Of a stretch of DNA of 64,000 nt, positions 3,058 to 63,635 are shown in pieces. Position 1 is the first letter of the stretch, and every line of letters starts with the position of its first letter. The stretch is from Pseudomonadota bacterium (GTDB lineage: Bacteria > Pseudomonadota > Gammaproteobacteria > Burkholderiales > JAJZQI01), in contig JAJZQI010000009.1 in the NCBI GenBank assembly GCA_021851875.1, positions 40,038 through 104,037 of the forward strand, in the 5' to 3' direction. The notes beneath the pieces were generated by a model. It saw nothing but the letters and a program-made list of their open reading frames with translations. It did no database searches and was not told where the DNA came from. The position numbers and the translations under genes are program-made.

Positions 3058-3824
3058 TGAAGCTGGCTACCTGGAACGTTAATTCTCTGAAAGTACGCCT
3101 GCCGCACGTGCTCGACTGGCTGCAAAGCGCCGCTCCTGACGTGCTGTGCTTGCAGGAAACCAAGATGGAGGATGCGGTCTTTCCGGCGGCGGCCTTGCAG
3201 GAAGCCGGTTACCAGGTCGCATTCAGCGGGCAGAAAACCTACAACGGCGTGGCGATTCTGTCGCGCCAGCCGATGACAGATGTCATAACCGCCTTGCCCG
3301 GACTGCAGGATGAACAAAAGCGCTTGCTGGCCGCCACCATCGATGGCGTGCGGGTGGTATGTGTCTACATTCCCAACGGCCAGAGTCTCGATTCGGAAAA
3401 ATATCCCTATAAGCTGTCCTGGCTGGCCGCCCTGACCGATTTTTTGCGCGCCGAGATGGCCCAATATCCCCGCCTGGCCCTGTTGGGCGACTACAACATC
3501 GCCCCGGCAGACAGCGACGTGCATGACCCGGCTGCCTGGGTCGGGCAGGTGCTGGTGAGCGAGCCTGAGCGGGCCGCCTTTACGGGTTTGCTGGCACTGG
3601 GATTGAAGGATGCTTTTCGGCTGTTTGAACAGGAAGACAAGGCGTTTTCCTGGTGGGACTACCGCATGAACGCTTTCCGCCGCAACATGGGTTTGCGGAT
3701 TGACCACATTCTCTTGTCCGAAACATTGGCGGCCGGTTGCACGGTCTGCGCGATCGATAAGGCGCCACGCAAACTGGAACGCCCGTCCGACCATACGCCG
3801 GTGTGGGCGGAAATCAAGGACTGA
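3057..3824 (+). CDS. xthA: exodeoxyribonuclease III (AP endonuclease)
   Basis: Motifs MKLATWNVNSLKVRLPHV, LRIDHILLS and SDHTPVWAEI. ATG 3057 overlaps the previous stop (TAATG). The first 45 codons of ORF 2922..3824 lie inside the preceding gene. Confidence 0.9.
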   Translation: MKLATWNVNSLKVRLPHVLDWLQSAAPDVLCLQETKMEDAVFPAAALQEAGYQVAFSGQKTYNGVAILSRQPMTDVITALPGLQDEQKRLLAATIDGVRVVCVYIPNGQSLDSEKYPYKLSWLAALTDFLRAEMAQYPRLALLGDYNIAPADSDVHDPAAWVGQVLVSEPERAAFTGLLALGLKDAFRLFEQEDKAFSWWDYRMNAFRRNMGLRIDHILLSETLAAGCTVCAIDKAPRKLERPSDHTPVWAEIKD

Positions 3825-3832
3825 GAGAAAAG

Positions 3833-3907
3833 GCAGGACTGAGGTGGAAGGACTGGGGGCTGAGTGAAAAACCGCTTGACCCGGTTTGGCGCGCGGTGAA
3901 ATTTTTA
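3833..3907. repeat. conserved core of intergenic heptamer element (copy A)
   Basis: Degenerate inverted heptamers AGGACTG AGGTGGA AGGACTG GGGGCTG, then a spacer with an AAACCG-N7-CGGTTT hairpin, a TTGACC hexamer and a T5 run. About 80-85% identical by eye to 62051..62127. Confidence 0.8.
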
Positions 3908-3987
3908 CACTCCCCACTCCCCACTCCCCACTCCCCACTCCTCACTCCTCACTCCTCACTCCTCACTCCTCACTCCTCACTCCTCAC
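3908..3987. repeat. heptanucleotide tandem array, 4x CACTCCC + 7x CACTCCT
   Basis: Perfect period 7 read directly from the sequence. The final TCA (3984-3986) is the TGA stop of the minus-strand gene 3984..5174. Confidence 0.95.
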
Positions 3988-5174
3988 AACAGCAACAAAC
4001 GGTAGCCTGTCGGTTGGATCGAGCCGGTGCTGATATAGAGTTCGAGCGGCGTTTCGCTGTGCGCGGCAAAGCCGCTCGCCGGACTCCTTGCCGGCGGCAG
4101 GTAGTTCGACGGTTTCAGCTGGCGCCGGGCAACCGGCTGGTCGTCGCTGTCCGTAAAAGTCACCTCAATCATCGGCCAGGCTTGCGGCATGCCTGACTGA
4201 TTGCGCAGTACCATGGTCAGCAGAATGATGTCCGGCCGCTGCGGCAGCGCCTGCAGTTCCGACGCAGTGATATCCAGAGCCGACAGATCGTGCGGCAGCG
4301 GCAGGGTGCAGCGCAGCTGGCGGCAGGCCGCCTGTAAATACGGCTGGCTGGCTGGGTAGCCGGCAGCGATCTGGCTGCGGAATTCGTAAACGGCCTGTCC
4401 CGCCAGGCAAAGCAGCAGGACAAGGTTGGCCAGCACCCAGCGGCCGGTGTGGCGCTTGCGCAAGGGTATCGGGTGGTGAATATAGCTGCCGGTAAAAGCG
4501 GGTGATGCCTCCGATTCATCGGGCAGCAGCCCGTCGGCAGGCATTTTTTCATTCTTTGCGCTGCTCTGCAGCCCGGCGCTTGCGCCGCCTTCGGGCGGCG
4601 CGGCCGCCGTTTCCTCGCCCGGCACGGTAACGCCGGGAACGTTCGGCGTGGGTGGAGGGGCGAGATCGATATCGATGGGCTGTTCGGCCATGATGTCATC
4701 GAACTCATCCACTACTGCGCCATGCTGTTCCAGTTCGGGAATTTCATTTTCCGGCAGGGGCTCGGCGGATACGGATTGGGGCGGTTGGGCTGCCTCGCCT
4801 GGCGCGGACGGCTCCTGCTCCGTTGGCGGCAGGATGACGATGGTGGTCTCGGTTGTGAGCGGGACGCCCGCCGCGGGGGCGCCGACGGTGACTTCTTCGC
4901 TGCCTGCCAGCGCGTCATAGAAGGTGATCTCGATTTCTTCCGGCTCCGCCGCCGGTCTTGCCGCCTTAGGCGTTTCGTTCAGGGGCGGCGTGACATCAAG
5001 CAGGAATTCATCCGGAATGGTGGTATCGATCTGCTCCTGTGCCAGCGCGTCGAAGGCATTGAAGATCCGCAGGCAATGGCCGCAGCGAACCTCGCCCTGG
5101 CGCGCATTCAACTGTTCCGCCGTGACGCGGAAGGTTGTCTGGCAATGGGGGCAGGTCGTTACCATGCTGCTCAT
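3984..5174 (-). CDS. zinc-ribbon (MJ0042-type) / DUF3426-like membrane protein
   Basis: Start MSSMVTTCPHCQTTFRV...VRCGHCLRIF forms a zinc ribbon, followed by a Pro/Glu-rich linker and one TM segment (WVLANLVLLLCLAGQAV). The 25 codons upstream in the ORF overlap the prmA end. Position downstream of prmA is typical. Confidence 0.7.
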   Translation of the reverse strand: MSSMVTTCPHCQTTFRVTAEQLNARQGEVRCGHCLRIFNAFDALAQEQIDTTIPDEFLLDVTPPLNETPKAARPAAEPEEIEITFYDALAGSEEVTVGAPAAGVPLTTETTIVILPPTEQEPSAPGEAAQPPQSVSAEPLPENEIPELEQHGAVVDEFDDIMAEQPIDIDLAPPPTPNVPGVTVPGEETAAAPPEGGASAGLQSSAKNEKMPADGLLPDESEASPAFTGSYIHHPIPLRKRHTGRWVLANLVLLLCLAGQAVYEFRSQIAAGYPASQPYLQAACRQLRCTLPLPHDLSALDITASELQALPQRPDIILLTMVLRNQSGMPQAWPMIEVTFTDSDDQPVARRQLKPSNYLPPARSPASGFAAHSETPLELYISTGSIQPTGYRLLLL

Positions 5175-6101: not shown

Positions 6102-7454
6102 TCAGTCTTTCTTCGCCTGTGCCAGCTTGTGTTCCAGGTAATGGATGCTGGTGCCGCCGGCAATGAAGGCGGCATCGTTCATCAGGTCCTGGTGCAGACG
6201 CAGGTTGGTGGAAATGCCGTCGACAATCATCTCGGACAGGGCGATGCGCATCTTGGCGATGGCCTGCTCGCGCGTTTTGCCGTGCACGATGATCTTGCCG
6301 ATCATGGAGTCGTAATGCGGCGGCACGAAGTAGTTGGCATACACATGCGAGTCCACGCGCACGCCGGGGCCGCCCGGGCTATGGTAGGAGGTGATGCGGC
6401 CGGGCGACGGTACGAAGGTGTACGGGTCTTCGGCGTTGACGCGGCATTCGATGGCGTGGCCGTTGAGCACGACGTCTTTCTGTCGAACCAGCATTTTCTG
6501 GCCGGCGGCGATGCGGATCTGCTCCTGCACGATGTCGATGCCGGTGATCATTTCGGTGACCGGATGCTCCACCTGCACGCGGGTGTTCATCTCGATGAAG
6601 TAGAACTCGTTGTTCTCATACAGGAACTCGAATGTGCCGGCGCCGCGATAGCCGATCTTGCGGCAGGCTTCGGCACAGCGTTCGCCGATTTTGTTGCGTA
6701 CTTTCGGGTCGAGGCCGGGCGCCGGCGCTTCTTCCAGCACTTTCTGGTGGCGCCGCTGCATGGAACAGTCGCGTTCGCCCAGAAAAATGGCGTTGCCGTG
6801 TTCGTCCGCCAGTATCTGGATTTCGATGTGACGCGGGTTCTCGAGGAACTTTTCCATGTACACCGTGGGGTTGCCGAAAGCGCTTTGCGCTTCCGTCTGG
6901 GTCATGGTCACGGCATTGAGCAGGGCTGCTTCGGTGTGCACCACGCGCATGCCGCGCCCGCCACCGCCACCGGCCGCCTTGATGATGACCGGGAAGCCGA
7001 TCTTGCGGGCGATGCGCAGGATTTCCTGCGGATCTTCCGGCAGGGCGCCGTCGGAACCGGGTACGCAGGGCACGCCGGCGGCTTTCATGGCGTCCTTGGC
7101 GGAGACCTTGTCGCCCATCAGGCGAATGGTGTCGGCGCGCGGGCCGATAAAGACAAAGCCGGACTGTTCCACGCGTTCGGCAAAGTCGGCGTTTTCCGAC
7201 AGGAAGCCGTAACCGGGGTGGATTGCCTCGGCGTCGGTCACTTCCGCCGCGCTGATAATGGCCGGAACGTTCAGATAGCTCAGGCTCGACGGAGCCGGGC
7301 CGATACACACGGATTCGTCGGCCAGCTTGACGTATTTGGCCTCGCGATCCGCTTCGGAATGCACCGCGACGGTTTTGATGCCCAGCTCGCGGCAGGCGCG
7401 CTGAATGCGCAGGGCGATTTCGCCGCGGTTGGCGATGAGAATCTTTTCAAACAT
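6102..7454 (-). CDS. accC: acetyl-CoA carboxylase biotin carboxylase subunit
   Basis: [17 protein letters not shown], an ATP-grasp core and [14 protein letters not shown]. Start is ATG 7454, with GGAGA 6 nt upstream. The six upstream codons of the ORF belong to the repeat unit. Confidence 0.93.
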
Positions 7455-7696
7455 GGGTGGTCTCCGCGGCAAAATCTCCCGGACGGCTTGCAGCCGTCAG
7501 GCGATTTGGCTTCGCCGCTGCGCTGCCGTGGGGCAGCTGGTCACCGCGGTTGGCGATGAGAATTTTTTCAAACATTGTCGGTCTCCGCGGCAAAATCGCC
7601 CAAACGGCCTTCAGCCGTCAGGCGATTTGGCTTCGCCGCTGCGCTGCCATACGGCAGCTGGTCGCCGCGGTTGGCGCTAAGAATTTTTTCAAACAT
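7419..7696. repeat. 121-bp tandem repeat duplicating the accC 5' end (2 full units + 35-nt partial)
   Basis: Minus-strand ATGTTTGAAAA starts at 7454, 7575 and 7696, an exact 121-nt period. The units differ by a few substitutions. Each contains the hairpin GACGGCT-TGC-AGCCGTC or a near copy of it. Confidence 0.9.
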
Positions 7697-7711
7697 GCTT
7701 TGGGTTCCCGC

Positions 7712-8170
7712 TTAGCCAATTACAAACAGCGGTTCGCCATATTCGACAGGTTGGCCGTTCTCAACCAGAATGGCCTTGATGGTGCCGCCCTGGTCCGCTT
7801 CGATTTCGTTCAGCAGCTTCATGGCTTCGATAATACACAGCGTGTCGCCGGAATTGACGGTCTGGCCGACTTCGACGAAGGCCTTGGCGCCCGGGGACGG
7901 AGCGCGGTAGAAGGTGCCGACCATCGGCGAGCGCACGACGTGCCCTTCCGGAATGGCGGAACCGGCATCGGCGGCCGGCGCTGCAGCAGGTGCGGCCGCC
8001 GCTGTGGGGGCCGCAGCCATGACCGGCGGCGGAGCGTAGGCGATCGGCGCGGCAATCGGCGCCATGGCGCGGGTGATGCGCACTTTTTCTTCGCCCTCGG
8101 TGATTTCCAGTTCGGCAATGCCGGAGTCTTCCACCAGATCGATCAGTTTTTTCAGTTTACGCAGGTCCAT
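7712..8170 (-). CDS. accB: acetyl-CoA carboxylase biotin carboxyl carrier protein
   Basis: Ala/Pro-rich linker and the biotinylation motif [11 protein letters not shown] near the C-terminus. Confidence 0.93.
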
Positions 8171-8772: not shown

Positions 8773-11067
8773 TCAGATTTTACCTTCGAGTTGCTGCAAA
8801 AACGCCTCCGGCGGCAGATAACCGACGATGCGGGCGGCAGGAATTTCCTGTCCTTGCGCATCGAAAAAAATGATGCCGGGCGGGCCGAACAGGCTGAATC
8901 GTTTCAGCAGGGCGCGCTGCTCGCTGCCGCTGGCGGTCACGTCAGCCTGCAGCAGCACGGCACCGGCCAATTTGGCCTGAACTTGCGGGTTGCTGAAGGT
9001 AAATCGCTCCAGTTCCTTGCACGATACGCACCAATCGGCGTAGAAATCCAGCATGACCGGTTTGCCCTTGGCTTCCTGCAGGGCCTGATCCAGTTCCGCC
9101 GGTGTGGTGATCTTGCGGAAAGCCAGTTTGCCGGCTTCATTGGAGCCGCCGGCGGTCGCAGCGGCAGCCTGTGCCTCGCCCTGCAGCGGTTGCAGGATGT
9201 CGCGGTGACCTGCCAGGGCGCCCAGCAGCAGGGCGACACCGGTTACCAGGGCGATAATGCCGATGCCTTTCCAGAAGCGCTGGATGCCTTTGGCGTTGAC
9301 CGGCAGCGGATCGATGGCCTTCAGGTACATGGCCGAGACGATCAGCAGGGCGGCCCACAGCAGCATGGCGGCAACGGCCGGGATCACCGGCGATATCAGC
9401 CAGATGGCGACGCCCAGCAGCAATACGCCGAAGAACGACTTGACCGTCTCCATCCAGCCGCCCGCGCGCGGCAGCAGGGCGCCGGCGGATACGCCCACCA
9501 GCAGCAGCGGCACGCCCATGCCCAGCGCCATGCTGTAAAGGGCGGAGCCGCCCAGCCAGACATTGCCGGTCTGGCTGATGTACAGCAGCGCGCCCGCCAG
9601 CGGGGCGGCGACGCAGGGGCCGACGATCACGGCGGACAGCATGCCCATGGTGAACACGCCGGCCAGCTTGCCGCCCTTGATGCGATTGCTGGTCTCGGTA
9701 AAGCGGCTCTGGATGACGCTGGGCATTTGCAGTTCATAAAAGCCGAACATGGAAAGCGACAGCAGGACGAAGATCAGGGCAAAACTGCCCAGTACCCATG
9801 GATTTTGCAGCGCAGCCGACAGCATGGTGCCGGACATGCCCGCGGCAATGCCCGCCAGGGCGTAAGTGATGGCCATGCCCTGCACATAGGCCAGGGAAAG
9901 AATGAAGCCTTTTTTCTTGCTGATGTGCTGGCCTTCGCCGGCGATGATGCCCGACAGAATCGGGATCATGGGGAAGACGCACGGCGTCAGGGCCAGCAGC
10001 AGGCCGGCGCCGAAGAAGAAGGCGACGATCAGCCACCAGTTGCCGGCGGCAAACAGCTGGGCGACCTCGGCAGTCTCGTTGGCGGGCGGTGCGCTTGCCG
10101 CGGCCGCATTCGTGGCGGCTGCCGCTGCTTCAGCCGGGACGCTGGCGGGCGAGGCGGCGGGTGGTTCGGTCAGTGTGCCCGTTTCCACGGCAGCCGGCAG
10201 GATCAGTTTGAACTGCTGCTGTTGCGGCGGGTAGCATACGCCTTTTTCGCTGCAGCCCTGGAAGCTGGCGTCGACGGTGATGTCTGATGCGGTTTTGTCG
10301 GTTCTTTGCAGCGGCACCAGCACGTCGAAATCGTGCTTGTAAATGCTCATCGTGCCGAAGTTGGGATCCTGCTTGCTGATTGCCGCCGGCCAGCTTATCG
10401 GGGCAAGCGAAACGCCCTGGCCGGTCACGCTGAACTTGATCTTGTCACGGTAGAGATAGTAGTTGTCGGCCACTTCAAAATGCGCCAGCAAGGTGTTCGC
10501 GTCACGCACTTTCAGACTGAGCCGGAAAGCTTCTTCCGGCGAGAGGAAGGTGTTCTCCTGGTTGCTTGAGAGCAGCGAGGGCAGCAGGCTGGTCAGCGAT
10601 TTGCTGCTGGTGGAGCTGATGGAGCTGTTCGGCGCGCTGCTCTGGCCGGCGGGAACCTGCATCACCTGGCTGCTTTCCATCGGCGGGTAGCAGACGCCGG
10701 CGTCGGCACAGCCCTGCGCCGTGACCTTCAGGGTGAACTGGCTGGCGCCGGCCGGCAGGGTGACGGGGAGGGTGATGCTGACCTGCTCGCGGTAGACTTC
10801 CGATCCTGCCGGGTGAACTTCATCCTTGAGGATCTTGCCGGGCGGAATGACCGGCTTGCCCAGCTGCGCGTCGGGCGAGCTGAACTTGAACTTGTCGCGG
10901 TAGAGGTAATAGCCCTTGGCCACGGTATAGCGCACCTCCGCCTTGTCGGGCGCCACCATGCGGGCGGAAAACTTGAAGGCGACTTCCGGATCCAGCAGAT
11001 CGGGTTCGTCGATGGCGTGGGCGGTAAAAGATACAAGCCAGAACAGGAGCGCAATGAGAAGGCGCAT
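8773..11067 (-). CDS. dsbD: thiol:disulfide interchange protein DsbD with duplicated N-terminal alpha domain
   Basis: Signal peptide, then two DsbD-alpha-like modules (YYLYRDK...QGCADAGVCYPP and YYLYRDK...QGCSEKGVCYPP). These are followed by a multi-TM core and a C-terminal thioredoxin domain (DFYADWCVSCKELE). 764 aa. Confidence 0.85.
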   Translation of the reverse strand: MRLLIALLFWLVSFTAHAIDEPDLLDPEVAFKFSARMVAPDKAEVRYTVAKGYYLYRDKFKFSSPDAQLGKPVIPPGKILKDEVHPAGSEVYREQVSITLPVTLPAGASQFTLKVTAQGCADAGVCYPPMESSQVMQVPAGQSSAPNSSISSTSSKSLTSLLPSLLSSNQENTFLSPEEAFRLSLKVRDANTLLAHFEVADNYYLYRDKIKFSVTGQGVSLAPISWPAAISKQDPNFGTMSIYKHDFDVLVPLQRTDKTASDITVDASFQGCSEKGVCYPPQQQQFKLILPAAVETGTLTEPPAASPASVPAEAAAAATNAAAASAPPANETAEVAQLFAAGNWWLIVAFFFGAGLLLALTPCVFPMIPILSGIIAGEGQHISKKKGFILSLAYVQGMAITYALAGIAAGMSGTMLSAALQNPWVLGSFALIFVLLSLSMFGFYELQMPSVIQSRFTETSNRIKGGKLAGVFTMGMLSAVIVGPCVAAPLAGALLYISQTGNVWLGGSALYSMALGMGVPLLLVGVSAGALLPRAGGWMETVKSFFGVLLLGVAIWLISPVIPAVAAMLLWAALLIVSAMYLKAIDPLPVNAKGIQRFWKGIGIIALVTGVALLLGALAGHRDILQPLQGEAQAAAATAGGSNEAGKLAFRKITTPAELDQALQEAKGKPVMLDFYADWCVSCKELERFTFSNPQVQAKLAGAVLLQADVTASGSEQRALLKRFSLFGPPGIIFFDAQGQEIPAARIVGYLPPEAFLQQLEGKI

Positions 11068-12248: not shown

Positions 12249-12290
12249 TGACAGGGTGAGATGACGGGATCGAGGACTGAGTAAGAAATC

Positions 12291-13160
12291 CTAGTCCCGG
12301 GTCTCCAATAAACGCCCTACCGTCGGATATCGTAAATTGGCATGAAGCTCCTCGTGTAGACGGCGGTTATCCAGTTGGCGTGACTCGGCAAGGAACGACA
12401 TTTGCAGTGCGCTGACCCGGCCGGCCAGCTCGACGCGCGACAGGCGCGGCGGACGCGGCAGGCCGGCGTAGTCGGCTACCTGATCGAAATAGTCGCCCAT
12501 TTTGAGCGGCTGGTCGTCGCTGGCATGGTAGACCCGGCAAGGGCGGGCGCGCCAAAGCGCCAGGATGGCCAGGCGTGCCAGGTCGTCGGCATGGATATGG
12601 TTGCTGTAGCTGTCTTCTGCCGGCAACAGCGCCGGCGTATGGTTGTGCAGGCGCTGCAGCGGCAGGCGGTCGCGGGCGTAAATGCCCGGGGCGCGCAGGA
12701 TGCCCAGACGGATGCGGCGCTGCCGCGCCCAGCGGCGCAGGGTGCGCTCGGCCTGCAGCCGGCGTTCGCCGCGGGCGGTGACCGGCCGGGGCGGGCGGGT
12801 TTCCTGCACCCGCTCACCCCGGCAGTCGCCATACACGCCGCTGGTACTGATATAGCTGAAGCGATATGGTACACTCCCCCGCTGCGACAGAGCGAGCGTC
12901 AGATGGCGCGTGCGCGTGTCGTGCGTGCCGCCGTCGGGGGGCGGCGCCATGTGAATGACCTGCTGAGCCAGCCCGGCCAGCCGTTTCAGGCTGCGGTAGT
13001 CGTCCAGGTCGCCGCTGATCGGGATAACGCCTTTGGCGCGCCAGTCCGCCGCCGCTTCGGCGCGGCGGACCAGTACATAGACACGCTGATAGCGTTGCAG
13101 CATTTCCGGTGGCAGGCGCTGAGCGACATCGCCCGCACCGATAATAAGTAGTCGTTGCAT
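12291..13160 (-). CDS. NAD(P)-dependent epimerase/dehydratase-family oxidoreductase
   Basis: N-terminal Rossmann motif MQRLLIIGAGDVAQRL. Length and layout fit an atypical SDR. Specific substrate unknown. Confidence 0.6.
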   Translation of the reverse strand: MQRLLIIGAGDVAQRLPPEMLQRYQRVYVLVRRAEAAADWRAKGVIPISGDLDDYRSLKRLAGLAQQVIHMAPPPDGGTHDTRTRHLTLALSQRGSVPYRFSYISTSGVYGDCRGERVQETRPPRPVTARGERRLQAERTLRRWARQRRIRLGILRAPGIYARDRLPLQRLHNHTPALLPAEDSYSNHIHADDLARLAILALWRARPCRVYHASDDQPLKMGDYFDQVADYAGLPRPPRLSRVELAGRVSALQMSFLAESRQLDNRRLHEELHANLRYPTVGRLLETRD

Positions 13161-13184
13161 TACGCAAGTTTAGAGGGAAGTCAT

Positions 13185-14216
13185 ATGCCGCATCAAATCA
13201 CGATTCAGCCCAGTGGCCATACATTGCAGGCCCATGCGGACGAAACCATCCTGCAGGCTGCCCTGCGTGAAGGCTATGCGCTGCCGTACGGCTGCCGCAA
13301 CGGCGCCTGCGGCGCCTGCAAGGGCAAGGTGCTGGAAGGTTCGGTTGATTACGGCGCATACCAGCCGAATGCCTTGCCGCAGTCCGATATCGATGCCGGT
13401 TATGCCTTGTTCTGCTGCGCCCATCCGCAGTCGGACGTGGTGATTGAATGTCGTGAAGTGGGCGCGGCCAAGGATATTCAGATCAAAACGCTGCCTTGCC
13501 GCGTGCAGGTCATGGACAAACGCGCGCACGACGTGATGGTGCTGCAGCTGAAATTGCCGGCGACCGAACGGCTGCAGTTCCTGGCGGGGCAGTATATCGA
13601 CATCCTGCTGCGCGACGGGCGCCGCCGCAGCTTTTCGATCGCCAACGCGCCGCATAACGACGAATTCCTTGAGTTGCATGTTCGCCACATACCGGGCGGG
13701 CATTTCACCGGTCATGTGTTCGAAAAAATGAAGGAAAAGGATCTGCTGCGCTTTGAAGGTCCGTTGGGCACCTTTTTCCTGCGCGAGGGCGAAGAATACG
13801 ACAAGCCGATCATCTTTGTGGCCGGCGGAACCGGTTTTGCACCCATCAAGGGCATGCTGGAACACGCCTTCCATGCGCAAGACCAGCGTGAAATAGTGCT
13901 CTACTGGGGTGTTCGCAGCCTGCAGGATCTTTACATGGCTGAACTGCCGGCCAGGTGGCAGGCCGAGCATGCCAATTTCACCTTCATTCCGGTGTTGTCG
14001 GAAGCCAGGCCGGAGGACAATTGGCAAGGCCGCAGCGGGCTGGTGCACGAAGCCGTGATGGCCGATTTTGCAGATTTAGCGGGCTTTGATGTGTACGCCT
14101 GCGGCAACCCGCTGATGGTGGAGGCCGTGCACATGGGCTTACGCGCAAAAGGGTTGCAGGAGGACAGCTTCTACTCCGACGCCTTCCTGTTCGAAGACCC
14201 GACCAAGGGGGACTGA
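13185..14216 (+). CDS. 2Fe-2S ferredoxin / FNR-family NAD(P)H-flavin oxidoreductase
   Basis: GAGGGAAG RBS before ATG 13185. Plant-type cluster motif CRNGACGACKGKV, flavin motif RSFSIAN and NAD motif FVAGGTGFAPIKG. Confidence 0.8.
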   Translation: MPHQITIQPSGHTLQAHADETILQAALREGYALPYGCRNGACGACKGKVLEGSVDYGAYQPNALPQSDIDAGYALFCCAHPQSDVVIECREVGAAKDIQIKTLPCRVQVMDKRAHDVMVLQLKLPATERLQFLAGQYIDILLRDGRRRSFSIANAPHNDEFLELHVRHIPGGHFTGHVFEKMKEKDLLRFEGPLGTFFLREGEEYDKPIIFVAGGTGFAPIKGMLEHAFHAQDQREIVLYWGVRSLQDLYMAELPARWQAEHANFTFIPVLSEARPEDNWQGRSGLVHEAVMADFADLAGFDVYACGNPLMVEAVHMGLRAKGLQEDSFYSDAFLFEDPTKGD

Positions 14217-14222
14217 GTCTGC

Positions 14223-28874: not shown

Positions 28875-28878
<4 letters not shown>
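27796..28878 (+). CDS. RND efflux membrane-fusion (periplasmic adaptor) protein
   Basis: CAGGAG RBS and lipoprotein-type signal LLAGGCG. Coiled-coil hairpin and beta-barrel regions are typical of the HlyD/AcrA family. Confidence 0.85.
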
Positions 28879-32240
<3,362 letters not shown>

Positions 32241-32495: not shown

Positions 32496-32540
32496 CGGCT
32501 GAGCGCGCTGTGCATTGCGCTCAGCCGGCTTGTTTTTGTG
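32496..32540 (+). terminator. rho-independent terminator after the small ORF
   Basis: 11-bp perfect stem CGGCTGAGCGC / GCGCTCAGCCG with a 10-nt loop, followed by GCTTGTTTTTGTG. Confidence 0.75.
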
Positions 32541-43862: not shown

Positions 43863-43907
43863 TTTGGCAGTAACGCGGTGAACAGTAAGCAGTACTACAC
43901 TTTTGCC

Positions 43908-43985
43908 CGCTCACCGCTCACCGCTCACCGCTCACCGCTCACCGCTCACCGCTCACCGCTCACCGCTCACCGCTCACCGCCTCAC
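43908..43985. repeat. heptanucleotide tandem array, 10x CGCTCAC + 1 degenerate unit
   Basis: Perfect period 7 from 43908 to 43977, then CGCCTCAC. The minus-strand GNAT ORF runs about 3.5 units into the array and stops at its in-frame TGA (43960-43962). Confidence 0.95.
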
Positions 43986-44445
43986 GCCGCATGTCGATAT
44001 GCGGAATACCGTCCTCATCGTACTCGTCCGATACGGCCACAAAGCCGAACGCTGTATAAAATTGTTGCAGGTGGCTTTGGGCGGAGAGATGCAGGGCCGT
44101 GTCGGGGAAGTGCTGCCGGCCGAATTCGACGGCTTGATCCAGCAGTTGCTTGCCGAGTCCCCGGTTGCGCCAATCCGGCTGGACGACGACGCGTCCGATA
44201 GCCGGTTTGGCCTGTTTGCCGCCGGGGAACAGCAGGCGCAGACAGGCGACCAGCCCAGGGTTTTGTGGATCGGTACTCCAGCCAAGCAGGTGCCAGGCCT
44301 CCGGGTCGAGTCCGTCGATGTCCGGGTACAGGCAGGTCTGTTCCAGTACAAACACCTTTTGCCGCAATTCAAGCAGGGCATACAGCGCATCGCGCCCCAG
44401 CGACTGCCAGTCGTGCCACTGCCAGACCACGCTCGGCGTGTTCAT
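43960..44445 (-). CDS. GNAT-family N-acetyltransferase (ElaA-like)
   Basis: LYALLELRQKVFVLEQTCLYPDIDGLD, plus the acetyl-CoA site RVVVQPDWRNRGLGKQLL. The C-terminal residues AVSGER are encoded by the heptamer array. Confidence 0.8.
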   Translation of the reverse strand: MNTPSVVWQWHDWQSLGRDALYALLELRQKVFVLEQTCLYPDIDGLDPEAWHLLGWSTDPQNPGLVACLRLLFPGGKQAKPAIGRVVVQPDWRNRGLGKQLLDQAVEFGRQHFPDTALHLSAQSHLQQFYTAFGFVAVSDEYDEDGIPHIDMRREAVSGER

Positions 44446-50713: not shown

Positions 50714-50737
50714 ACGTAAAATCGTTTCCGGCGTTTA

Positions 50738-50770
50738 AAGGGACAGGGCTTTGCCCTGTCCCTTTTTTAT
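50738..50770 (+). terminator. rho-independent terminator after glnA
   Basis: GGGACAGGGC-TTT-GCCCTGTCCC followed by TTTTTT. Confidence 0.85.
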
Positions 50771-60666: not shown

Positions 60667-61379
60667 TTCTGCTGATCGATGCGGGCAACAGCCGTTTGAA
60701 ATGGGGCGTGTGGTCGGGCTCAGGCTGGCTGGAACAGGGTAGTCTGGCTAATGACAATCTGCCGGCGCAGGCGCCCTGGAGGGATTTCACTCCGCTTGCG
60801 GCCGCCTGGGTGGCGCATGTCGGGCCAGCCCAGGTAGCCGACTGGATCCGTCGGCATGCCGCGGATACGGCATTGCACTGGCCCCGGGCGGCTGCGAGCC
60901 AGTGCGGGGTGGACAACCGTTATGAGCATGCCGAACAGTTGGGAGTGGACCGCTGGCTGGCCCTGATTGCGGCACGGGCTTTGCATGCGGGGCCGGTGCT
61001 GGTGGTGAGCGCGGGTACGGCGGTGACGGTGGATGCGCTGAGCGCGGACGGCGTGTTTCTAGGCGGAACGATTCTGCCCGGCCTGGGGCTGATGCGCGCT
61101 GCGCTGGCCAGCCGGGCGGCGCAATTGCACGATGTTCCCGGCCAATGGCAGCGTTTCCCGCGCAACACCGCCGACGCGATTCACAGCGGCTGTATCAACG
61201 CCATCGCCGGGGCCGTTCGCGCGCAGTGGCATGGGCTGGCGGCACTGCAGCAACAACCGGCTGTCTGCCTGTTGACCGGCGGCGCTGCGGCCGAACTGCT
61301 GTCGCATTTGGCCGATTTGCCGCTGCAGCAGGAAGATAATCTGGTACTGGACGGTTTACTGAGGATCTCGCAGTCATGA
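60663..61379 (+). CDS. coaX: type III pantothenate kinase
   Basis: ILLIDAGNSRLKWG and VSAGTAVTVD. The GTG start overlaps the birA stop. Confidence 0.88.
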   Translation: MILLIDAGNSRLKWGVWSGSGWLEQGSLANDNLPAQAPWRDFTPLAAAWVAHVGPAQVADWIRRHAADTALHWPRAAASQCGVDNRYEHAEQLGVDRWLALIAARALHAGPVLVVSAGTAVTVDALSADGVFLGGTILPGLGLMRAALASRAAQLHDVPGQWQRFPRNTADAIHSGCINAIAGAVRAQWHGLAALQQQPAVCLLTGGAAAELLSHLADLPLQQEDNLVLDGLLRISQS

Positions 61380-62050
61380 TGCGTTTGCTGTTTGTGTTGC
61401 TGCTGCTGGCCAACGTGGCGCTGGCGGTGTACTGGTATAGCGGAATGCAGAAACAGAATGGCGTTGCGGCCTCTCCGCCTTTGCGCGCGGAGCAGATTCG
61501 TCTGCTGACGCCTGCCGAAGTGGCGTCGGCATTGACCGCGGCCAGTGGCGTGGCGAATTCGGCTTCCGCCGTTGCCGCGCCGGTTTTTGTTTGCATGCAG
61601 TGGGATAATTTGTCGGCCAAGAGTGCGGATGTGGCACGTAGCCAGTTGCAAGCCGCCGGCGTGACAGGACCGATTGGCGTGCAATCGTTGGCGCCCAGCG
61701 ATGCCAAACACTGGGTTTACATGCCGCCGCAGGGCAGCCGCGCCAATGCCGAAAAGAAGATCGGCGAACTGGAGACGCTCGGGGTGAGCGAATACCATCT
61801 GGAGGCGGGCGAAGGAAAGTGGCAGTGGGCCATTTCTCTTGGCGTGTTCTCCAATGAGGAGCGCGCGCAGCATTTTCTCGAGGATTTGCACAAGAAAGGC
61901 GTGCGCTCGGCCCGCATGGGTCCGCGCGATGCTTCGGTCACCAGCGTTACGCTACGCTTTACTGTGCCCGACAACAGCTGGGTCGATAAACTGGTTGCCA
62001 TTCGTCAGCAGTTTGCCGGTTCCAGCCTGCACGCAGTGAACTGCAAGTAA
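61376..62050 (+). CDS. SPOR-domain membrane protein
   Basis: N-terminal TM segment LLFVLLLLANVALAVYW. C-terminal SPOR-like repeat (WVYMPPQGSRANAEKKIGELETLGV...WAISLGVFSNEERAQHFLEDL). Confidence 0.7.
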   Translation: MMRLLFVLLLLANVALAVYWYSGMQKQNGVAASPPLRAEQIRLLTPAEVASALTAASGVANSASAVAAPVFVCMQWDNLSAKSADVARSQLQAAGVTGPIGVQSLAPSDAKHWVYMPPQGSRANAEKKIGELETLGVSEYHLEAGEGKWQWAISLGVFSNEERAQHFLEDLHKKGVRSARMGPRDASVTSVTLRFTVPDNSWVDKLVAIRQQFAGSSLHAVNCK

Positions 62051-62127
62051 GCAGGACTGGGGTGGAGGGACTGAGGACTATGTGAAAAACCATTTGACCC
62101 GGTTTGGTGTGGGCGGTGAAATTTTTA
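62051..62127. repeat. conserved core of intergenic heptamer element (copy C)
   Basis: Begins directly after the SPOR-gene TAA. AGGACTG GGGTGGA GGGACTG AGGACTA + TGTGAAAAACCATTTGACCCGGTTTGG...GGTGAAATTTTTACAC is about 80-85% identical by eye to 3833..3907. Confidence 0.8.
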
Positions 62128-62257
62128 CACTCCTCACTCCTCACTCCTCACTCCTCACTCCTCACTCCTCACTCCTCACTCCTCACTCCTCACTCCTCAC
62201 TCCTCACTCCTCACTCCTCACTCCTCACTCCTCACTCCTCACTCCTCACTCCTCACT
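62128..62257. repeat. heptanucleotide tandem array, 18x CACTCCT
   Basis: Perfect period 7 from 62128 to 62253, then CACT. The final TCA (62253-62255) is the TGA stop of the minus-strand gene 62253..63635. Confidence 0.95.
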
Positions 62258-63635
62258 TTCCCCAAGGGAACAGCTTGCCGGGGTTGAGGATCAGTTGCGG
62301 ATCGAAGGTCTTTTTGATGTCCCGCATCAGTTGCAGGGTAACCGGGTCGATTTCGCGGTCGACAAAGGCACGCTTTTCGCTGCCGACGCCATGTTCGCCT
62401 GACAGGGTGCCGTGCAGTTGCAGGACCAGCGAGAAAATTTCGTCCAGGCAGGCCTCCGCCCGCAGCATTTCCTGCGGGTCGTCCGGATTGACCAGCAGAT
62501 TGACGTGGATATTGCCGTTGCCGGCATGACCGAAATTGGCGTTGGCGATCTGATGCCGGCTGCTGATGCGTCTGAGGCCGCTCAGCAATTCAGGCAGGCG
62601 CGATACCGGCACCACCACGTCTTCATTGATTTTCTTCGGCGCAATATCGCGCAGCAGCGGTGACAGGGCCTTGCGTGCCGCCCACAGGCGGGCCGTGTCC
62701 GATGCCTCCTGGGCGTTGATCAGACCATCGTTTTGCAATGCCTGCAGGATGGCGGCTGCCGTTGCGGCAAGTTCGTGCGCGCTGCCGTCGATCTCGATCA
62801 TCAGCATGGCTTGCGTGTCGTCCGGCAGCAAACCGGGCTGGCGGCCGCGGATCAGCTGCAGCGAGGCGGCATCGAGCAATTCCAGTGCGCTGGGGATGTG
62901 CGGTTGGGCCATTACGGCAGCAATGGCGCGGGCGCAGCTTTCGATATCGCGGTAGTGGGCGGTGATGCCGCCGGTTTTTTCCGGCAGGGGGGTGAGTTTC
63001 AGCGTGGCTTCGGTAATGACGGCCAGCGTGCCTTCCGAGCCGACCAGCAGCCGGGTCAGGTCATAGCCGACGACACCCTTGGTGGTGTAACAGCCGGTGC
63101 GGATGATGTCGCCCTTGCCGGTAACGGCCTTGAGCCCCAGCACATGGTCGCGCGTGGTGCCGTATTTGACGGCATGCGGGCCGCCGGCGCCGGTGGCCAG
63201 ATTGCCGCCGATGGAGCAGAACGGCGCGCTGGTGGGGTCGGGCGGCCAGAAAAAGCCGTGCGGTTTGGCGCTGTCCTGCACAGTCTGATTCAGTACGCCC
63301 GGCTCCACCACGATGGCGCGATTGGCCGGGTCAACGGTTATGACCCGGTCCATGCGCTCGAGTGACAAAGCAATCCCACCCTGTTCGGGCAGGCTGCCGC
63401 CGGCTGTGCCGGTGCCGCGTCCGCGTGGCGTGACGGGCACGTTGAATTCATTGCACAGGCGCAGAATCTGGCTGATTTCCTCTGCCGTCAGGGCGAAGAC
63501 GACCGCTTGCGGCAGAGTCAGGCGGCGGCTGTTGTCGTAGGCATAGGCCAGGCAGTCGGCCGGATCGGTGAGCACCCGGTCGGCCGGCAGCAGGCGCTGC
63601 AGCCGGATCAGCATGGCGTCGGGCAGGGCGTTCAC
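62253..63635 (-). CDS. FAD-linked oxidase (GlcD / D-lactate dehydrogenase family)
   Basis: FAD-binding PCMH domain (VTPRGRGTGTAGGSLP, GGNLATGAGG) and a C-terminal GEHGVGSEKR motif. Confidence 0.85.
   Translation of the reverse strand: MNALPDAMLIRLQRLLPADRVLTDPADCLAYAYDNSRRLTLPQAVVFALTAEEISQILRLCNEFNVPVTPRGRGTGTAGGSLPEQGGIALSLERMDRVITVDPANRAIVVEPGVLNQTVQDSAKPHGFFWPPDPTSAPFCSIGGNLATGAGGPHAVKYGTTRDHVLGLKAVTGKGDIIRTGCYTTKGVVGYDLTRLLVGSEGTLAVITEATLKLTPLPEKTGGITAHYRDIESCARAIAAVMAQPHIPSALELLDAASLQLIRGRQPGLLPDDTQAMLMIEIDGSAHELAATAAAILQALQNDGLINAQEASDTARLWAARKALSPLLRDIAPKKINEDVVVPVSRLPELLSGLRRISSRHQIANANFGHAGNGNIHVNLLVNPDDPQEMLRAEACLDEIFSLVLQLHGTLSGEHGVGSEKRAFVDREIDPVTLQLMRDIKKTFDPQLILNPGKLFPWGK

Follow-up and report, generated by a model that had tools for sequence, protein, structure and literature searches.

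Head-to-tail arrays of heptanucleotides are the most abundant class of long simple sequence repeats (SSRs) in many large, GC-rich, free-living bacteria, Betaproteobacteria included; intergenic DNA contains more of them than expected, and they have been proposed to arise by polymerase slippage (Mrazek 2007, summarised in PMC4679880 and PMC4692102). In Xanthomonas, each genome carries 70-75 inverted pairs of GGGAATC arrays, which show a strong bias to lie 0-50 nt from a stop codon or to overlap it; array lengths differ between species, and the repeat type (single or inverted pair) and the locus are preserved (Rehm 2015, PMC4692102). Here we describe heptamer elements in a 64,000-nt stretch of a Burkholderiales genome (GCA_021851875.1, contig JAJZQI010000009.1, positions 40,038 to 104,037 of the forward strand), hereafter the window. 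Our main subject, element 1, lies between xthA and a convergent minus-strand gene (3984..5174) with Pfam DUF3426 and Zn-ribbon domains, and elements 2 and 3 occur further along the window. Elements 1 and 3 are probably copies of one lineage-specific intergenic heptamer element, in which inverted arms, (AGGASTG)~4 and (CASTCCY)n, enclose a spacer. The original prediction, made from the letters of the window, could assign element 1 to no repeat family; it does match the heptanucleotide long SSRs and specifically the Xanthomonas inverted pairs near or overlapping stops (PMC4692102). The element fits a lineage-specific variant of this known class in its inverted-pair form, and what is new here relative to the class is the shared spacer together with the TGA-bearing arms.

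Like the Xanthomonas GGGAATC pairs, the elements of the window are period-7, mostly intergenic, convergent arrays able to form a stem-loop or cruciform, they are placed at stop codons (all three window arrays) and their unit number varies between related species. Unlike the Xanthomonas units, those found here (AGGASTG/CASTCCY) are not G-tract-rich and do not conform to the GGGNATC quadruplex pattern. The only stretch with four G-tracts, a quadruplex candidate by sequence, is 3908-3935, where four CACTCCC units read as GGGGAGT four times on the minus strand, a textbook four-G-tract motif; four is also the unit count preferred in Xanthomonas heptamer arrays (Rehm 2015, PMC4692102). By our own reading GGGAATC contains no stop in either orientation, whereas TGA-bearing units here face both genes. 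The conserved non-repeat spacer of about 45 nt, common to two loci in the window, is not reported for the Xanthomonas pairs in the available part of PMC4692102. With respect to heptanucleotide long SSRs in general, the arrays consist of near-perfect head-to-tail 7-nt copies whose number varies at the same locus; an element that combines an inverted arm and a conserved spacer and reaches from stop to stop is not described in the statistical survey of Mrazek 2007, as PMC4679880 and PMC4692102 summarise it.

Two other heptamer systems bear comparison. The TAACTGA repeats of Beggiatoaceae, cyanobacteria and Bacteroidetes also carry stops in all forward frames and are translatable in the reverse orientation (PMC4679880), and heptamers with stops in all frames can overlap the ends of open reading frames (ORFs) by only about 18 nt (MacGregor 2015, PMC4679880). 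Unlike the present elements, the TAACTGA repeats are found for the most part immediately before start codons, as 2-6 copies, are almost never inverted (1 indirect among 170), and have been proposed to act in translational regulation (PMC4679880). The STRR heptamers of heterocystous cyanobacteria (Calothrix/Nostoc) are likewise tandem, intergenic and dispersed arrays (PMC4679880 or PMC4692102), but they belong to a different phylum and have different units, and neither a shared spacer nor a relationship with stop codons is described for them.

A CRISPR array is ruled out, since the 7-nt units are contiguous and without spacers, whereas CRISPR has 24-48 nt repeats with unique spacers. REP/BIME sequences and bidirectional intrinsic terminators are imperfect palindromes that follow gene 3' ends, often between convergent genes, and their RNA hairpins can protect 3' ends or stop transcription. 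A REP is an imperfect palindrome of 20-40 nt that begins with a conserved tetranucleotide at its 5' end; genomes hold tens to hundreds of such copies, which go together with a RAYT transposase. The present element is palindromic and lies at gene ends too. Its stems, however, are made of tandem heptamers with one arm greatly expanded, a GTAG-type head is missing, and there are 2 core copies in 64 kb. It also lacks the hallmark of an intrinsic terminator, a GC-rich stem with a loop of 3-8 nt and a U-run directly behind it.

Architecture of the heptamer elements

Element 1 consists of a left arm of four degenerate heptamers, a non-repeat spacer clamped by the invariant sequences GTGAAAAA and TTTTTACAC, and an expanded right array (Table 1). 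All parts named by the original prediction are present in the sequence where it had placed them, and the composite plan of inverted degenerate arm, conserved spacer and expanded array was borne out. The same is true of its description as a long imperfect inverted repeat with one expanded arm, with which both the folds and the consensus structure presented below agree. Two details needed correction. The 6/7 complementarity ascribed to the left-arm heptamers is right for the AGGACTG units and drops to about 72-81% over the whole arms; and the element, said to occupy the entire gap, does so except for the eight bases that follow the xthA stop (GAGAAAAG), which lie outside the shared element. Tandem Repeats Finder gives the array a period of 7, 11.4 copies, 98% matches and a score of 132. 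On the gene strand its units read AGGAGTG or GGGAGTG, and direct reading of the sequence shows that each arm, in the sense of the gene running into it, offers a TGA in all three frames within 21 nt. As predicted, the first TGA of the array is the stop of gene 3984..5174, and on the plus strand no frame of the array contains a stop, with ORF 3803..4033 reading through it.

Table 1. Positions in the window of the heptamer elements and their parts.
Feature	Position	Strand	Description
xthA stop TGA	3822-3824	+	read from sequence
Arm-type unit AGGACTGAG	3817..3825	+	one exact unit formed by the last two xthA codons and the TGA (AAG GAC TGA G)
Eight bases GAGAAAAG	3825-3832		outside shared element
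Element 1, whole	3833-3987		left arm, ~45-nt spacer, right array
Element 1 left arm	3833..3863	+	GC + AGGACTG AGGTGGA AGGACTG GGGGCTG + A; degenerate (AGGASTG)x4, inverted relative to right array
Left-arm heptamer AGGACTG	3835-3841		
Left-arm heptamer AGGTGGA	3842-3848		
Left-arm heptamer AGGACTG	3849-3855		
Left-arm heptamer GGGGCTG	3856-3862		
Element 1 spacer (core)	3864..3910	+	~45 nt, non-repeat
GTGAAAAACC	3864-3873		start of spacer; invariant in 4 copies
Small hairpin AAACCG-CTTGACC-CGGTTT	3869-3887		AAACCG 3869-3874, loop CTTGACC 3875-3881, CGGTTT 3882-3887
TTGACC hexamer	3876-3881		in spacer
GC-rich variable stretch	3888-3899		in spacer
AATTTTTACAC	3900-3910		end of spacer; pairs back to GTGAAAA
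T5 run	3902-3906		in spacer
Element 1 right arm (expanded array)	3908..3987	+	4x CACTCCC (3908-3935) + 7.4x CACTCCT (3936-3987)
TGA stop of DUF3426/Zn-ribbon gene 3984..5174	3984-3986	-	first TGA of array
Element 2, whole	43866..43985	+	body plan as elements 1 and 3, other unit, no core homology
Element 2 inverted arm GGCAGTAACGCGGTGAACAGTAAGCAGTAC	43866-43895		degenerate
Element 2 spacer TACACTTTTGC	43896-43906		11 nt
Element 2 array	43907-43985		11 x CCGCTCA (gene strand GCGGTGA); 11.1 copies in Tandem Repeats Finder
Element 3 left arm and spacer	62051..62127	+	GC + AGGACTG GGGTGGA GGGACTG AGGACTA, then spacer; paralogue of 3833-3907
Element 3 array	62128..62257	+	18.6 perfect CACTCCT units; Tandem Repeats Finder score 260

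Element 3 starts directly after the TAA stop (62048-62050) of a SPOR-like gene (61376..62050), and the first TGA of its array (62253-62255) is the stop of a GlcD-like gene on the minus strand (62253..63635). Its non-repeat parts are 87% identical to those of element 1 (66/76 aligned bases plus a 2-nt indel), slightly above the 80-85% that had been estimated by eye for this recurrence, and a 26-nt core pattern occurs twice in the window as against 0 times in 100 shuffles. A further recurrence that had been suspected at 43863-43985 proved to have the same architecture with a different unit, and we map it as element 2; the units of its inverted arm are GCAGTAA CGCGGTGA ACAGTAA GCAGTAC. Here a GNAT gene (43960..44445, minus strand) extends 24 nt into the array, ending in ..REAVSGER and the stop. 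In all three elements a four-unit left arm opposes the array, the arrays match at 98-100% in Tandem Repeats Finder, and each array starts at the stop codon of the minus-strand gene or reaches as much as 24 nt into that gene. All three occupy convergent gaps, of which there are roughly a dozen in a crude gene map of the window.

Shorter sequences of the arm type were also seen at other gene ends. At 14209-14217, where a convergent gap measures 6 nt, the arm-type unit GGGACTGAG coincides with the TGA stop of plus-strand gene 13155..14216. In the convergent gap after a DUF3465 gene (12273-12300), an element-arm unit forms the small hairpin AGGACTGAG..CCTAGTCC, which may be a relic or a proto-element; in a related species (species B), the orthologous gap (L130:18940-18975) has TTTTTCAC followed by CCCTCAC ACCTCAC ACCTCAC, overlapping the stop of an epimerase gene.

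Orthologous loci, assemblies and the wider class

Exact protein look-ups located the loci in an NCBI metagenome-assembled genome (MAG), GCA_021847085.1, and in several ENA and Logan assemblies. At the xthA/DUF3426 locus, one relative with about 80-85% DNA identity to the window (L138) has a 4-nt gap between the two genes (TGA AGGG TCA) and no element, its xthA ending in AAA GCC TGA instead of the AAG GAC TGA of the window. In two closer relatives (L140 and L141, about 96% identity) the left arm is identical, the apical spacer has diverged and the array counts 2.4 units as against 11 in the window, while species B (L139, about 76-82%) has a TAA at the same codon position, followed by CACTCCT and at least three CAGTCCT. 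At the SPOR/GlcD locus the element is present in three relatives (L142-L144, about 79-86%) with three units, CACTCCT CAGTCCT CAGTCCT, as against 17.6-18.6 units in element 3; Sulfurirhabdus autotrophica (L147, about 67%) keeps the synteny without the element. The CAGTCCT units of the relatives are the exact complement of the left-arm unit AGGACTG, and in L142-L144 they code the tail of GlcD (AGG ACT GAG GAC TGA, that is RTED and the stop). GlcD homologues have in common the sequence ..NPGKLFP, after which come variable tails of 2-12 residues; at about 70-77% amino-acid identity, they place the uncultured host in Nitrosomonadales, near Sulfuricellaceae, Sulfurirhabdus and Nitrosomonadaceae.

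An alignment of the two window copies with two orthologous copies shows GTGAAAAACC to be invariant in 4/4, whereas AATTTTTACAC is the same in both window copies and has one changed base in either relative. The apical spacer between them is 58-83% identical among copies, and the TTGACC hexamer, exact in both window copies, is TCGACT and TTGCCC in the orthologous ones. Taken as a series, these comparisons indicate that the elements are inherited at fixed loci within a young lineage and that the arrays expand and contract, and variation in unit number between relatives is found at both loci. The arrays end at stop codons or a few codons inside ORFs. The proposal that the array provides the stop codon of the DUF3426 gene is better replaced by one in which the array abuts a native stop: species B has its TAA at the same codon position, and elsewhere arrays run a few codons into ORFs (GNAT in the window, the RTED tail of GlcD in the relatives).

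Since contigs often break in such arrays, we considered whether the arrays could be artefacts of short-read metagenome assembly, an explanation that we find scarcely credible. Element 1 is base-for-base identical in four independent assemblies (the window, the NCBI MAG and two from ENA), which disposes of the assembly doubt raised at the outset; relatives carry orthologous copies with short, easily assembled arrays; and the ORFs on either side terminate properly at each locus. As expected, Logan k=31 unitigs break off within the arrays; ORFs called across the array appear only at the ends of Logan contigs, as peptides of less than 30 aa. For element 3 the count does depend on the assembly, with 17.6 units and a single-nucleotide polymorphism in the last unit of the NCBI MAG and 18.6 units in the window, so its exact length is uncertain or polymorphic. 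The GlcD gene of that MAG (L131) encodes 460 aa, the same length as in the window; by our own reading of the polymorphism, its last residue would change from K to N. Two ENA contigs (L130 and L132, both at 10676-10800) match the window at 99.98% identity as far as 62158, the fourth unit of array 3, and from there run on into DUF3426-prmA-accC sequence that belongs to another species (about 85% identity). The junction is probably a chimeric join via the shared heptamer array, a real recombinant being the alternative, and illustrates a practical point, namely that arrays of this kind break short-read assemblies and cause chimeric joins between species. A co-occurring strain (L001; ENA ERZ27237442, k141_191610) is 98% identical to the window over 21 kb (31808-53228) and has the same 11 units in array 2; a second contig (L002) ends within this array.

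When the GTDB representative genomes were scanned by pattern for CTCACNN arrays, at least 120 loci from many phyla were returned, and 108 arrays lying away from contig ends were used in an arm test that sought an inverted copy of two units, with at most 3/14 mismatches, within 150 nt. The counts in this paragraph are among the matches listed. An inverted arm was found on the 5' side of 40 of the 108 arrays and on the 3' side of none (shuffled control, 2); in every pair, therefore, the G-rich arm (GTGAG) precedes the C-rich one (CTCAC). Whichever side a transcript comes from, it meets a TGA-bearing arm first. Of the long arrays, about half start 0-20 nt from the stop of an open frame of at least 100 codons, and 31/37 paired arrays (84%) abut at least one incoming ORF of at least 80 codons. 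Incoming ORFs on both sides are seen in only 10/37, from which it follows that convergent gaps are not a general requirement: the preference for such gaps that had been suggested describes the window (3/3) and is unsupported as a rule outside it. The AGGAGTG/CACTCCT pairing also occurs in MAGs of Rhodocyclales and Sulfuricellaceae (L017, L051). Two positions of the unit are free to vary in the wider class, and many units bear no likeness to a Shine-Dalgarno sequence; as the scan pattern pre-selected CTCAC units, it makes no statement on unit preference.

Predicted structure, possible role and rival explanations

Both single-sequence and consensus folds pair the left arm with the first units of the array. 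With single sequences, element 1 has z-scores of -2.07 and -3.69, and element 3 has z-scores of -1.30 and -1.55. RNAalifold predicts for the four copies, on either strand, one long hairpin of 23 pairs made of the pairing between arm and first array units, an invariant GUGAAAA/UUUUACA stem and a short inner stem; one pair is compensatory, the left-arm GGGG of copy 1 facing the CCC of its CACTCCC units. For element 2, the minus-strand RNA (GNAT sense) is predicted to form a stem of about 29 bp via G.U pairs (-69.7 kcal/mol, z = -5.33) and the plus-strand RNA forms no such stem (z = +0.65). The degenerate arm of this element shows an excess of G>A changes, which preserve G.U pairs. G>A decay of the arm as a class-wide sign of selection at the RNA level was rejected: it accounts for 50/162 changes over 33 paired arrays and is merely the commonest change.

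How such an element could arise and act may be pictured as follows. The right arm changes length between relatives, by a mechanism that would be slipped-strand mispairing. Purifying selection would let the arm grow as far as the stop codon or a few codons into the ORF, and no further; a TGA in all frames combined with such selection would account for the position of the arrays exactly at stop codons, and for narrow convergent gaps being filled along their whole length between the two stops. Both convergent transcripts would then carry the predicted long imperfect hairpin just past their stop codons, and the role that we judge most likely for this hairpin is that it would stabilise and/or terminate both converging mRNAs and insulate the two genes from each other. 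The surplus (CACUCCU)n, which has 57% C and no G and extends for up to 130 nt past the opposing gene's stop codon, could serve as a Rho entry site on the opposing transcript; this composition fits that of rut sites, which are C-rich, G-poor, unstructured and untranslated RNA stretches of about 70 nt or longer. We hold the hairpin or terminator role specifically as a tentative proposal, a step more doubtful than the identification of elements 1 and 3 as copies of one element.

Several observations weigh against this picture. The z-scores of elements 1 and 3 are modest, covariation amounts to a single compensatory pair in four sequences, and the T5 run lies inside the predicted stem and not after it. 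A consensus scan of 3600-4200 and 61850-62450 finds no canonical intrinsic terminator, the G>A excess of array 2 does not stand out across the wider class, and the core-bearing copies known are two, both within the 64-kb window. The Rho idea is plausible by base composition alone, and the function as a whole is purely what we infer from the predicted structures. Finally, the element is dispensable, given that in a related species 4 nt separate the two convergent genes and the element is missing. On the side of the proposal, the organism does use canonical terminators elsewhere, as other convergent gaps of the window show: one at 50737-50765 has the form AAAGGGACAGGGC-TTT-GCCCTGTCCCTTT followed by TTTATT (a bidirectional A-tract/stem/T-tract arrangement), and a second hairpin terminator, at 32496-32527, has a 12-bp stem and then a T-run.

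The main competitor of a hairpin role is a neutral origin, in which the elements are by-products of slippage and hairpin-templated repair without any function, selection only barring them from invading ORFs. We judge it somewhat unlikely, although much agrees with it: a related species lacks the element entirely, relatives have very different numbers of units, divergence of the apical spacer is rapid, and published work on the class (PMC4679880, PMC4692102) settles on no function. Neutrality sits less well with the invariance of GTGAAAAACC in four copies and the single change per relative in AATTTTTACAC at about 96% and 83% DNA identity, or with the one-sided arm order (G-rich 5', C-rich 3') and the abutment of paired arrays on incoming ORFs in the wider class, or with the strand-specific RNA stem predicted for array 2. 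A more ambitious extension of the hairpin proposal would join all these observations into a general, unrecognised class of gene-end modules, made of inverted GTGAG-type heptamer arrays, the G-rich arm always 5' and the C-rich arm 3', and acting as self-adjusting, slippage-tunable bidirectional insulators. Such modules would present three-frame stops to each incoming gene, a hairpin on both transcripts and a G-free, C-rich Rho-loading tail. Convergent gaps of as little as 4 nt could be open to them, and they could move as a unit from one locus to another, as the spacer common to two loci would suggest; we regard this joint reading as unlikely. Spread between loci is also the essence of a mobile, non-autonomous element of MITE or REP type, whose arms would be terminal inverted repeats and which would transpose into gene-end gaps. 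Two loci 58 kb apart do share a non-repeat core, 87% identical and in the same orientation, presence or absence varies between species, and the paralogues within the genome are as similar as orthologues. However, no target-site duplication is visible between filled and empty sites, the gene map of the window shows no transposase or RAYT gene nearby, both loci are vertically inherited across species, and the copies number two in the 64-kb window. The core pattern AAAACCNNTTGACCCGGTTTGG has 0 matches in the GTDB representative genomes and, in JGI metagenomes, one unrelated low-GC chance match; the core-array junction has 0 matches in viral contigs; and core BLAST against the 120 listed array-bearing loci gave no match. 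We therefore consider transposition improbable.

The remaining alternatives concern signals within the arms or the spacer. The (AGGAGUG)n strand could act as a tandem array of Shine-Dalgarno-like sites (complement of the 16S tail, UAAGGAGGUGAUC) or GGA sites, trapping ribosomes or titrating a CsrA-like protein. By sequence reading, AGGAG recurs every 7 nt after the stop with a GUG 6 nt downstream of each, the left arm contains GAGGTG, and the array-2 unit GCGGTGA is one base from GAGGTGA; binding of S1, Csp or CsrA has been proposed for the TAACTGA repeats (MacGregor 2015, PMC4679880). This seems very improbable to us, as in the wider class two unit positions are free to vary and many units lack Shine-Dalgarno character, and the units here are predicted to be partly sequestered in the hairpin. 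Still less probable is a small RNA gene or antisense promoter in the spacer, along the lines of the antisense start that the original prediction had considered for the TTGACC region. Both window copies have the hexamer unaltered, with an AT-rich stretch 15-17 nt further on, but a consensus scan of both core-bearing elements (3600-4200, 61850-62450) finds no sigma-70-like promoter, the 2-nt indel alters the spacing between the two copies, and the hexamer has changed in the orthologous copies. Rfam returned 0 matches over the whole window at gathering thresholds, and in permissive mode only sub-threshold matches, mostly to eukaryotic microRNA or long non-coding RNA models.

Among the long simple repeats of many free-living bacteria, those with a heptanucleotide unit are the most frequent, and the present loci are of use for asking what they do. 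These loci offer a clean natural series at orthologous sites, from no element through 2-3 units to 11-18 units, and this series, together with the conserved spacer, the stop-facing arms and the strict arm order, makes the gene-end hairpin or insulator hypothesis directly testable.

Other repeats in the window

Two longer tandem repeats were also found. The first, at 7423-7697, has 2.3 copies of a 121-nt unit; it lies between accC and accB (7712..8170, minus strand) and duplicates the start of accC, with the result that the same start peptide, or a close variant, opens three ORFs: the real accC and two decoys of 42-48 aa (7447..7593 and 7568..7696). The gap between accB and accC in species B is only 17 nt (L130). 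At 30103-30382, a 93-nt unit occurs 3.0 times with 97% identity, in frame within a gene of 1121 aa (28875..32240), and is a very recent 31-residue protein repeat.

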